A stretch of 12,085 bases of DNA from a virus. Taxonomy: Duplodnaviria > Heunggongvirae > Uroviricota > Caudoviricetes. The stretch lies in the IMG/VR virus record IMGVR_UViG_2529293043_000033, one strand, 5' to 3'. This document shows positions 7,603 through 9,796 of the stretch, piece by piece (positions within the stretch are counted from its first letter, which is position 1; every line of letters starts with the position of its first letter). A program made the translations under genes and the position numbers. The notes beneath the pieces are model-generated. The model ran no database searches. It worked only from the letters and a program-made list of their open reading frames with translations, and was not told where the DNA came from.

Positions 7603-7873
7603 AATGTATGGACATGGTGCAGGGTATATCGCAGACGAGGTTAATGATCTGGCTATACTGGCGCTGAATTTATCAAATATCGCGAACCTGAAGCGATACG
7701 AGCTTGATATGGGAGGTTGCGACTCGTGCGGTCAGGATTGTGGCGCTGATATGACTGAAGATCCTGATGGTGATTATGTCCTGTTTGATGACGTGGTTAA
7801 GTTGTTTGAATTTGATACAACCACTCAAAAGTTAGAAATCCCGGCAAAGGAGGCAGCCAGTGGGCAAGATTGA
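7556..7873 (+). CDS. Hypothetical acidic protein
   Basis: ATG 7556 preceded by GGAGTGAAGAG. 105 aa with a CDSCGQDCG cysteine cluster and an acidic C-terminus. Confidence 0.5.
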   Translation: MTITKQRVEEIISRIEMYGHGAGYIADEVNDLAILALNLSNIANLKRYELDMGGCDSCGQDCGADMTEDPDGDYVLFDDVVKLFEFDTTTQKLEIPAKEAASGQD

Positions 7874-8297
7874 CTATCAGGCACTGCGTGAGGCAGCACA
7901 AAACTATCAATCGACGCTGGCGTGGTATCAGGCTACCCCGGACAGCCCAAATGCTGAACGGGATTGTGATGCGGCTCTTGCTGCGTTTAAGCGTCACATC
8001 CGTCATCGGGAAGCGGATATTATCGCTGATTTGCTGGATGGACTGGAAGAAGCAAAATCACAACTCAACGAGCAGCGTGAGTATTACGAAGGCGTTATCT
8101 CTGATGGGAGCAAGCGTATTGCTGAACTGGAAGCGCGGGAAGTTCAATTACCGACTCGCTACGACCTTCGATATGGACACCCGATAAATGCAGATGAGCG
8201 ACATGTCATGATACCTAAAGAAAATGGCAGTTGGCTTTACCTGATTGACCTAGAACACGCATTACGCGTCGCTGGCATTCGCATCAAAGGAGAGTGA
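7860..8297 (+). CDS. Ea22-like prophage protein (N-terminal QALREAA motif)
   Basis: GTG 7860 with AAGGAGG 6 nt upstream; overlaps the upstream gene by 14 bp. N-terminus IDYQALREAAQNY is characteristic of the E. coli prophage ead/Ea22-like family. Confidence 0.55.
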   Translation: MGKIDYQALREAAQNYQSTLAWYQATPDSPNAERDCDAALAAFKRHIRHREADIIADLLDGLEEAKSQLNEQREYYEGVISDGSKRIAELEAREVQLPTRYDLRYGHPINADERHVMIPKENGSWLYLIDLEHALRVAGIRIKGE

Positions 8298-8492: not shown

Positions 8493-9080
8493 ATGACCAC
8501 TATTACCAAAGATCGACTGCTGACAATCCAGCATTGGCGCGAAACATACGGACCGGGTAGCAACGTTGTGCTTCCAGCAGAAGAAGCGGAAGAGCTGGCA
8601 CGGATTGCGCTGGCATCACTGGCAGCAGTATCGGATGAACGAGCAGCCTATGAATTATTTATGGAGAAGCGTTTCGGAGAATCTGTAGATCGCCGCAGAG
8701 CAAAAAATGGCGATAGAGATTACATGGTATGGGATATGGCGCTTGGCTGGATTATCTGGTGTCACCGCGCCGCCATGCTTCAGGCTGGAAACTTTCGGGA
8801 AAATAAGGGTTCGTCAACCAATAATTTTCGGGAAATCTCGGAAACGTCAACCAACTATCCGGTAACTCCGGATGGTTGGATAAGCTGTAGTGAGCGAATG
8901 CCGGATGATGGTCAGCACGTAATTATTTTATGTGATGGCGCATTCGTTCTTTATGCGCAATATCGAGACGGTGAGTTTTTTGATGTAGTCCGTAATGGTG
9001 ATGAATTTTTCGAAACACAGAGCCGCAATGTAACCGACTGGATGCCGCTACCAGAACCGCCGCAGGAGGTGCGCCAATGA
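8493..9080 (+). CDS. DUF551-domain prophage protein
   Basis: C-terminal motif TDWMPLPEPP typical of DUF551; starts 2 nt after the preceding stop. Confidence 0.65.
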   Translation: MTTITKDRLLTIQHWRETYGPGSNVVLPAEEAEELARIALASLAAVSDERAAYELFMEKRFGESVDRRRAKNGDRDYMVWDMALGWIIWCHRAAMLQAGNFRENKGSSTNNFREISETSTNYPVTPDGWISCSERMPDDGQHVIILCDGAFVLYAQYRDGEFFDVVRNGDEFFETQSRNVTDWMPLPEPPQEVRQ

Positions 9081-9160
9081 TCTGGCCTGAAGCCTTTGCA
9101 ATTACAGGCGTTGCTATAGCTATTGATTTTTTAGTATATGTTATTTGTCGGTGGGGGTAA
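9077..9160 (+). CDS. Small hydrophobic peptide (27 aa, MIWPEAFAITGVAIAIDFLVYVICRWG), not in the ORF track
   Basis: ATG 9077 overlaps the DUF551 stop (ATGA); AGGAGG at 9064-9069 gives a 7-nt spacer. One predicted TM helix. Confidence 0.4.
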   Translation: MIWPEAFAITGVAIAIDFLVYVICRWG

Positions 9161-9195
9161 AAACGTTCGCCGGGATTCACACCAAAGGAGGGAAT

Positions 9196-9300
9196 ATGTC
9201 GGATGATATTTCACTGGCAATGGAAGGTGCGCTGGCTGTTATTGCTGTTGTGGGCGTTTACTGCCTGGTTGTGTTTTTGATGGATCGACTAGGGAACTGA
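9196..9300 (+). CDS. Small membrane peptide (34 aa, MSDDISLAMEGALAVIAVVGVYCLVVFLMDRLGN), not in the ORF track
   Basis: ATG 9196 preceded by AAAGGAGGG. One predicted TM helix. Followed immediately by a perfect 22-bp palindrome. Confidence 0.45.
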   Translation: MSDDISLAMEGALAVIAVVGVYCLVVFLMDRLGN

Positions 9301-9308
9301 ATTCATTA

Positions 9309-9330
9309 CGATATGGGAATTCCCATATCG
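9309..9330. repeat. Perfect 22-bp palindrome CGATATGGGAATTCCCATATCG
   Basis: Read directly; self-complementary around GAATTC. Lies between the second small peptide and the putative hok promoter; no U-tract follows. Confidence 0.7.
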
Positions 9331-9342
9331 GGTAAAAACGGT

Positions 9343-9370
9343 TTGCGGTAAAGCGAGAGTTAAGTAGAAT
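9343..9370 (+). promoter_or_regulatory. Candidate hok mRNA promoter
   Basis: -35 TTGCGG (9343-9348), 16-bp spacer, -10 TAGAAT (9365-9370). A transcript from here to the terminator at about 9796 would be about 420 nt, the expected hok mRNA size. Confidence 0.35.
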
Positions 9371-9429
9371 TGCTGCGGGTGCTTGAGGCTGTCTGCCTCG
9401 GGCATGCCACCGTAAGGTAGACAGAGAAA

Positions 9430-9497
9430 AGCCCCAGTTAACATTACGCGTCCTGCAAGACGCCTAACATTAATCTGAGGCCAATTTCATGCTAGAC
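9430..9497 (-). ncRNA. Candidate Sok-like antisense RNA (approximate extent)
   Basis: Minus-strand promoter candidate -35 TTGCCT (9532-9527), 17-bp spacer, -10 TAACCT (9509-9504), placing an antisense transcript over the mok/hok leader and start region as in hok/sok loci. The 3' end was not resolved. Confidence 0.3.
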
Positions 9498-9545
9498 ACA
9501 TGTAGGTTAGCCTCTTACGCGCCGAAAGGCAAGGAGAAGCAGGCT

Positions 9546-9701
9546 ATGAAGCAGCAAAAGGCGATGTTAATCGCCCTGATCGTCATCTGTATCACCGTCA
9601 TAGTGACGGCACTGGTAACGAGGAAAGACCTCTGCGAGGTACGAATCCGAACCGGCCAGACGGAGGTCGCTGTCTTCACAGCTTACGAACCTGAGGAGTA
9701 A
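9546..9701 (+). CDS. hokD: Hok/Gef-family type I toxin (HokD/RelF-like)
   Basis: 51-aa product MKQQKAMLIALIVICITVIVTALVTRKDLCEVRIRTGQTEVAVFTAYEPEE, near-identical to HokD/RelF as I recall it. AGGAG 9 nt upstream of ATG 9546. An in-frame upstream ATG at 9489 gives a mok-like leader frame. Confidence 0.85.
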   Translation: MKQQKAMLIALIVICITVIVTALVTRKDLCEVRIRTGQTEVAVFTAYEPEE

Positions 9702-9770
9702 GAGACCCGGCGAGGGAGAAATCCCTCGCCACCTCTGATGAATCAGGCATCCTCAACGCACCCGCACTTA

Positions 9771-9796
9771 ACCCGCTTCGGCGGGTTTTGTTTTTT
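9771..9796 (+). terminator. Rho-independent terminator of the hok transcript
   Basis: CCCGC-TTCG-GCGGG stem-loop (9772-9785) followed by TTTTGTTTTTT. Preceded by an fbi-like hairpin GGCGAGGGA-GAAA-TCCCTCGCC at 9709-9730. Confidence 0.75.

Follow-up and report, generated by a model that had tools for sequence, protein, structure and literature searches.

The stretch of DNA analyzed here (IMG/VR virus record IMGVR_UViG_2529293043_000033, Caudoviricetes; 12,085 nt, referred to below as the window) carries two very short open reading frames (ORFs), which we call pep1 and pep2, between a gene with the DUF551 domain and a mok/hok/sok locus. The window matched, at 100% identity, a lambdoid prophage whose immunity is of the RacR/YdaS/YdaT type and which is present in many genomes of E. 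coli O157:H7. In the matching strain, TR01, the prophage adjoins potC, and the annotation of prophage Sp6 in strain Sakai shows this arrangement too. The genes follow each other in the order of Ead/Ea22-like genes, the DUF551 gene (8493-9080), pep1, pep2, mok/hok/sok, a small hypothetical gene, a DUF968 gene, and RusA.

The first ORF, pep1 (9077-9160, plus strand; MIWPEAFAITGVAIAIDFLVYVICRWG), runs from an ATG at 9077 to a TAA at 9160 and encodes a microprotein of 27 aa with a single transmembrane (TM) segment. Upstream, the last codons of the DUF551 (EaA-type) gene (plus strand; Pfam PF04448, E=4.5e-21) include the Shine-Dalgarno sequence (SD) of pep1, AGGAGGT at 9064-9070, which is separated from the pep1 ATG by 6 nt. 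The TGA stop of the DUF551 gene and this ATG overlap as ATGA at 9077-9080. The second ORF, pep2 (9196-9300, plus strand; MSDDISLAMEGALAVIAVVGVYCLVVFLMDRLGN), runs from an ATG at 9196 to a TGA at 9300 and encodes a single-helix membrane peptide of 34 aa. Its SD (AAGGAGG, 9185-9191) lies 4 nt before the ATG and was predicted to be essentially unpaired. The original prediction, which was made from the sequence letters and an ORF list, had described two short hydrophobic peptides of these lengths with a single TM segment and near-consensus SDs, the first one coupled to DUF551 by the ATGA overlap, and all of this was present as described.

The best 17-residue Kyte-Doolittle window scored 2.32 in pep1 and 2.95 in pep2, and the AlphaFold model of pep2 was one helix spanning residues 3-33 (predicted local distance difference test score 90.6). 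Both peptides end 4-5 residues past the TM segment. Each of them has the properties of small single-pass membrane proteins, namely a length below 50 aa, one membrane-spanning helix, and a ribosome-binding site that is either its own or coupled. For two ORFs that combine an SD with a TM-grade segment to arise by chance in these 336 nt, a first-order Markov model gave a probability of about 5e-5, and the rest of the 12 kb contained one further ORF of this kind, which is probably hok.

Full-length homologues of pep1 were found by tblastn in 90 phage records. With a second variant of pep1 as the query, the plasmids with homologues numbered 181; they are for the most part non-mobilizable, with sizes of about 90-100 kb, and we infer them to be P1-like phage-plasmids. 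A degenerate DNA pattern matched more than 120 IMG/VR contigs; the pattern searches for pep1 fixed WPEA(F/L) and RWG. In 185,579 species-representative genomes there were 23 matches, three of which had the 78-nt spacing of real pep1 (in E. coli, in Shigella flexneri, and in a 1.8-kb contig of a Segatella metagenome-assembled genome), the translations of the 78-nt matches being checked only within the pooled list of variants. The Segatella contig is probably phage contamination. The other matches, which lacked the 78-nt spacing, were taken as chance matches in length only.

The pep1 family thus extends from lambdoid and Shiga toxin phages to P1-like phage-plasmids and a lytic phage of the rV5-like group. 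The Shiga toxin phage 933W has an unannotated copy of 27 aa between ST933Wp77 (p77) and the hokW promoter, and in the lytic rV5-like phage Av-05 an unannotated copy follows gene 00123. The P1-like Salmonella phage SJ46 has an unannotated version of 24 aa, ATGA-coupled to gp092. In the same phage, gp090, an annotated 40-aa TM peptide, is encoded two genes downstream of the pep1 homologue (L296; 909-983 and 1271-1393). None of the 12 RefSeq loci examined had pep1 annotated, although a few GenBank genomes include the exact peptide of the window as a hypothetical protein. In K-12 CPS-53, yfdT directly follows yfdS (DUF551) according to the annotation, the sequence itself not having been scanned for pep1. 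A 121-aa "DUF551" protein that clustered with pep1 was considered as a possible fusion and rejected, because its sequence did not contain pep1 and the clustering was an artefact.

The original prediction depended on the reading frames being kept in related prophages, and both of them are. All 56 distinct nucleotide variants of pep1 collected from phage and prophage contigs had 27 codons and an identical start and stop. The length was nearly always 27 codons across the family, and one lineage (L003 and L004) had an in-frame deletion of 6 nt. Clades differing at about 40-80% of synonymous sites retained the start, the stop, the length, the hydrophobic core, and the WPEAF and (C/F)RWG ends, while the +1 and +2 frames contained stops in each clade representative. 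Of 148 copies, 143 showed ATGA as the overlap between the start and the preceding stop, and two more showed GTGA. Genes upstream of pep1 fell into at least four classes with unrelated C-termini, only some of which carry DUF551 and most of which have no Pfam domain, and a GGAGG-type SD was kept before pep1 in all of these classes. The unrelated C-termini indicate that the ATG of pep1 is the boundary of a recombination module and that pep1 is not tied to DUF551 as such. pep1 was also present in contexts without hok. Lesions of pep1 were noted across five loci (L274, L284, L009, L015, and L134): codon 3 had changed from TGG to TAG or TGA, codon 26 had become a stop, or the start was shifted by 1 nt.

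In contrast to pep1, pep2 is already on record. It is annotated by the Prokaryotic Genome Annotation Pipeline as a hypothetical protein (WP_001278450.1) and as ECs_5710 in Sakai Sp6; of the two peptides, both of which had earlier been described as missed by the ORF track, only pep1 is thus routinely missed by annotation. Huecker et al. 2017 (PMC5597208) listed XECs145 among the translated novel small genes of Sakai. XECs145 has 54 codons, the last 34 of which are pep2. In lysogeny broth (LB), its translatome value was 346 reads per kilobase per million mapped reads with a ribosome coverage value of 4.35 and a coverage of 0.99; it was classed as "real" with a predicted inner-membrane location (PMC5597208). 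The 34-aa sequence and its place between the DUF551 gene and mok/hok are the same as in the window, whereas XECs145 was treated as a 54-codon ORF in supplementary tables only, and linkage to hok, the second allele described below, and the cassette structure were not described (PMC5597208). These footprints are the kind of translation data by which the original prediction proposed to check the peptides, and they suggest that pep2 is translated in growing, uninduced lysogens. Full-text literature searches with the peptide sequences and the accession found no paper, and neither sequence was present in the supplements of two EDL933 ribosome profiling (RIBOseq) papers or an Enterobacteriaceae microproteome preprint.

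A pattern search showed that pep2 exists in two alleles, type A, which is that of the window, and type B, which are 54% identical over 28 residues (E=5e-10). Type B has a conserved GTG start, an AGGAGG SD, and 29 aa, and the exact 29-aa protein is already in NCBI. It is preceded by a promoter, TTGAAK-N17-CATATT, in which the hexamers are conserved while the spacer sequence varies (L160, L163, L159, L013, L202, and others). The two alleles share the TM and C-terminal pattern, and their upstream regions differ. In one lineage of type A, the start was changed from ATG to GTG, which is still valid. Outside the part fixed by the pattern, the ratio of nonsynonymous to synonymous variation (pN/pS) in frame was 0.22 for type A and 0.15 for type B, and the two remaining frames gave 0.86 and about 2.5. 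In the synonymous-substitution analysis that had been proposed for both peptides, pep2 thus had its lowest value in frame, while the pep1 frame could not be told from its antisense shadow frame (see below). A phmmer search with type A against 1.84 billion representative proteins gave seven close relatives only, all at least 79% identical, which makes it a narrow family. A terminator-like site at 9251-9267 was discarded, since it lies inside pep2 and such sites were at chance level.

The sequences on either side of pep2 suggest how it came to its position. An 11-nt direct repeat, GGGTAAAAACG, occurs on the plus strand at 9155-9165, where it spans the final codons of pep1, the stop, and a remnant of the pep1/hok junction, and at 9330-9340, on the left border of the hok promoter region; 0.17 matches would be expected in the whole window with one mismatch allowed. 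At loci without pep2 (L011, L012, and 933W), the sequence that precedes the hok promoter is joined directly to the pep1 stop (...TGGGGATAAAAACGGTTTGCGG...). In the window this junction is present twice, and the approximately 175 bp between the copies hold the SD of pep2, its ORF, and a perfect palindrome of 22 nt. Because loci lacking pep2 show one junction and the window shows two, the repeat is best explained as a duplicated pep1/hok junction flanking a cassette that was inserted or can be deleted. The original prediction had seen a motif after each peptide; the exact repeat is there, but it is the duplicated junction and not a signal that follows peptides.

The palindrome (9309-9330; CGATATGGGAA/TTCCCATATCG) lies between the stop of pep2 and the hok promoter and has an EcoRI site at its center. 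It forms a stable hairpin (z = -3.5) without a U tract. Variants were found at other loci, one with a symmetric base change, and the palindrome accompanies hok even without pep2, for example after paa/adfO in PPompW prophages. The putative hok promoter, as read from the sequence, lies at 9343-9370 on the plus strand, with the -35 hexamer TTGCGG at 9343-9348 and the -10 hexamer TAGAAT at 9365-9370. A strict promoter scan did not call it, and the -10 block was invariant in the alignment of pep1/hok junction loci. The hok mRNA leader and sok region follow at 9377-9551 (plus strand; Rfam sok RF01794, 114 bits, E=6e-27), with the hok RNA match starting at 9377; the equivalent region of 933W is annotated as sokW. 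The mok (from 9489) and hok (9546-9701) reading frames occupy 9489-9701 on the same strand. With the Rfam sok match and the TAGAAT -10, the hok boundary is firm.

Both alleles of pep2 travel with hok and not with DUF551. In 108 of 117 contigs, hok followed pep2 at a distance of no more than 500 nt, and nine copies of pep2 had no hok nearby. The genes upstream of type B vary, and include a 333-aa protein without assignment and a QueH-like protein. A gap of 6 nt that contains no terminator separates the type B stop from the hok -35, and a read-through transcript of pep2B and hok is therefore possible. At three loci (L263, L265, and L280), nothing but the final 6-7 codons of type B (MDHLSD* or LMDRLSD*) was still joined to the hok promoter, which implies that the left recombination boundary of the hok module can fall inside pep2. 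We also sampled 78 hokD-type promoters from IMG/VR by the hok leader alone, without de-duplicating the contigs. pep1 was directly upstream at 28 of them, pep2 type A at 14 (11 with pep1), type B at 19, and a divergent pep1 at one; the remaining loci had the palindrome only, remnants of pep2B, a pep1 that was disrupted, or nothing of the kind. Most of the sampled hokD-type promoters thus have a peptide ORF before them, at about 62 of 78 loci, or roughly three-quarters.

In prophage Qin of K-12, relB-relE is located immediately upstream of hokD, as had been pointed out when the peptides were first described as occupying the place of a known toxin-antitoxin pair. That position is correct, but the exchange was not like for like. 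K-12 hokD (L157) shares sequence with the window (9531-9791) only from 16 nt before the ATG of hok on, and relBE must therefore have taken the place of the promoter of hok, the start of mok, and the target of sok, plus anything further upstream.

From these results, we consider that both ORFs are very probably genuine phage genes. pep1 would close the early block of Ead/Ea22/EaA (DUF551) genes as its final cistron. A ribosome that ends the upstream gene at the TGA would restart on the overlapping ATG, aided by the SD embedded upstream, and a single-pass inner-membrane peptide of 27 aa would be made whenever the early block is expressed. pep2 would be a separate cassette of about 175 bp belonging to the hok/sok module, which recombined into the pep1/hok junction and left GGGTAAAAACG on either side. 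It would be translated from its own strong and accessible SD in growing, uninduced lysogens. As for function, we tentatively suggest that both products may be small, non-lethal proteins of the inner membrane, each binding to a larger membrane protein, from the host or the phage, and adjusting its activity, as most characterized bacterial peptides of 25-35 aa with one TM helix do. For the combined reading, in which the two are real microprotein genes of separate modules and non-lethal membrane modulators, we would give a probability of roughly 0.6.

Several observations weigh against this reading. Neither peptide had a match in Pfam, NCBIfam, PHROGs, PADLOC, or PDB, the best being an unusable hit to PHROG 38566, a family without an assigned function (E=0.01). 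Because the pattern searches fixed WPEA(F/L) and RWG, the conservation of those residues in pep1 is partly built in, and the contig counts tally sequences, without de-duplication, and not independent events. The middle codons of pep1 gave a pN/pS of 0.47 in frame and 0.36 in the antisense frame whose third positions coincide. No direct translation data were found for pep1, and two EDL933 RIBOseq data sets do not list it. Some copies of pep1 are disrupted, with nonsense codons at L274, L284, and L009, which is occasional decay in prophages. On the side of pep2, XECs145 was defined from an upstream non-canonical start, footprint reads cannot be assigned to one copy since the prophage copies in an O157 genome are identical, and no sigma-70 promoter was found for it on the plus strand of the window. 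The antisense frame corresponds to an ORF of 85 aa on the minus strand (8923-9180), which covers pep1 together with the last part of the DUF551 gene. As it shares third codon positions with pep1, it mimics purifying selection. We rejected it as a gene since its boundaries vary between loci and it would cross the DUF551 domain in antisense.

These observations raise the question whether the ORFs lack a functional product altogether, their conservation coming from recent descent, an overlapping DNA or RNA element, or an antisense frame, and the footprints being translational noise. The like scores of the pep1 frame and its antisense shadow, the restriction of pep2 type A to close relatives, and the occurrence of nonsense alleles would all agree with this. 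pep1, however, keeps its start, stop, and length between clades that have diverged at a large part of their synonymous sites, while the antisense ORF has no conserved boundaries, and it persists where hok is absent; the alleles of pep2 keep the TM and C-terminal pattern at 54% identity behind different upstream regions. We therefore leave this explanation a small chance. It is also unlikely, in our view, that one or both peptides are type I-like membrane-damaging toxins that kill or arrest the cell, as Hok, TisB, Ldr, and Ibs do. Size, hydrophobicity, and the single helix would fit, a real type I toxin locus is adjacent, and an antisense RNA could in principle arise from two promoter-like minus-strand sites, at 9220-9193 and 9161-9133. 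Such sites, however, were at chance level (4 found against 2.1 +/- 1.5 expected), and there was no Rfam antitoxin match in the window outside the hok leader. Neither peptide resembled Hok or any toxin family: no Pfam match was obtained at E<=1, Hok/Gef (PF01848) included, and BLASTP of pep2 against the Hok of the window gave nothing at E<=100. Translation of a type I toxin is off in growing cells, whereas the SD of pep2 is open and not sequestered and its footprint density is high in healthy LB cultures, and pep1 is coupled to an ordinary early gene, unlike type I toxin control. The presence of at least two identical copies of pep2 per O157 genome also speaks against a strong toxin.

The association with hok could be read in another way, with pep2 as a working part of hok/sok, either because the peptide meets Hok in the membrane or because transcription and translation of pep2, which for type B extend right into the hok promoter, alter the production or folding of hok mRNA. 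hok follows pep2 in nearly all contigs while the upstream genes are variable, the stop of type B almost touches the hok -35 without a terminator between, and even the 3'-end remnants of pep2B stay joined to hok. But many hok loci have no pep2 (those with pep1 only, those of PPompW prophages, and plasmid and chromosomal hok genes), the nine copies of pep2 mentioned above lack a nearby hok, and plain linkage in a young mosaic module explains the association equally well, which makes a working part in hok/sok improbable. Exclusion of superinfecting phages at the inner membrane, by pep2 and perhaps pep1 as a product of lysogenic conversion, had been raised in the original prediction and seems to us a rather poor prospect. 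It would agree with the reported expression of pep2 in uninduced lysogens, with its predicted inner-membrane location, and with the layout of type B, in which a small gene with its own promoter lies between phage genes; neither peptide is similar to known exclusion or defence proteins, however, and the presence of pep1 in a lytic phage is at odds with a role restricted to lysogens. A function as holin- or antiholin-like lysis modulators is very improbable, as small size and TM character are all that points to it. Both genes are in the early region, while in the matching genome the lysis cassette, with a holin, a YdfR-family protein, a lysozyme as the endolysin, and a spanin, is about 4.5 kb downstream, outside the window. 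The C-termini, CRWG in pep1 and MDRLGN in pep2, do not form the charged tail of a holin or antiholin, and the footprints of pep2 point to translation in growing cells without lysis. We do not think that the two peptides act as pore-forming killers or holin partners, and keep non-lethal modulation of a larger membrane protein as the preferred reading.

Among known systems, small single-pass inner-membrane proteins of E. coli such as AcrZ, MgtS, MgrB, KdpF, and CydX modulate larger membrane proteins. The class of small E. coli membrane proteins was reportedly defined by Hemm et al. in 2008. pep1 and pep2 are like AcrZ, MgtS, MgrB, KdpF, and CydX in having 25-50 aa, one TM helix, and a good SD, in having been overlooked by annotation, and probably in being non-toxic at the native level, but there is no sequence relationship, and pep1 and pep2 are phage-borne while the members of that class are chromosomal core genes. 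Compared with Hok/Gef type I toxins and Sok, the peptides are alike in being small and hydrophobic and encoded within the same 700 bp, with pep2 co-traveling with hok. They differ in lacking sequence similarity, a periplasmic Cys tail, a mok-type leader, a folded-back mRNA, and a supported antisense RNA, and in that their translation is open. Phage morons are autonomous insertions of a promoter and a gene, with or without a terminator, between phage genes, such as HK97 gp15 and lambda bor and lom. pep2 resembles them, being a discrete insertion between conserved neighbors that are otherwise adjacent (pep1 and the hok promoter are contiguous in L011, L012, and 933W), with duplicated junction flanks, reported expression in the lysogen, and, in type B, its own promoter. 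Type A in the window differs from a moron in that it has no recognizable promoter or canonical terminator, the hairpin lacking a U tract.

A more far-reaching proposal would be that pep2 is a third, protein component of prophage hok/sok addiction modules, tuning the activity of Hok or the fate of hok mRNA either as a TM peptide or as an upstream cistron that is translated, and that pep1 serves as the universal partner in the membrane for the mosaic early proteins of the Ead/Ea22/EaA (DUF551) type, whether in lambdoid, P1-like, or rV5-like phages; we regard this as a long shot. That pep2 is annotated and listed as translated is already known. What is new, and of moderate interest, is the breadth of the pep1 family, its near-invariant ATGA coupling to unrelated genes, and the frequent presence of small TM ORFs at prophage hok promoters. 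As far as we could find, a small TM ORF upstream of the hok promoter at most hokD-type loci has not been described before. This pairing gives the toxin-antitoxin field a simple question that can be tested. pep1 is also an example of an annotation blind spot for ORFs of fewer than 30 codons that overlap an upstream stop, since it is conserved across several major enterobacterial phage groups, the well-studied 933W included, yet left out by standard annotation. Unless a function is found, current understanding of these systems is unchanged, and pep1 is one more small phage membrane peptide.

Two further observations were made in the neighboring genes. At 9710-9791, overlapping the 3' end of the hok mRNA and the terminator hairpin at 9770-9787, there was a sub-threshold Rfam match to isrK (27.7 bits, with a gathering score of 50). 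The Ead/Ea22-like gene at 7860-8297, two genes upstream of the DUF551 gene, matched the N-terminal domain of MucB/RseB in Pfam (E=4e-5, 23.6 bits, with a cutoff of 22.3).

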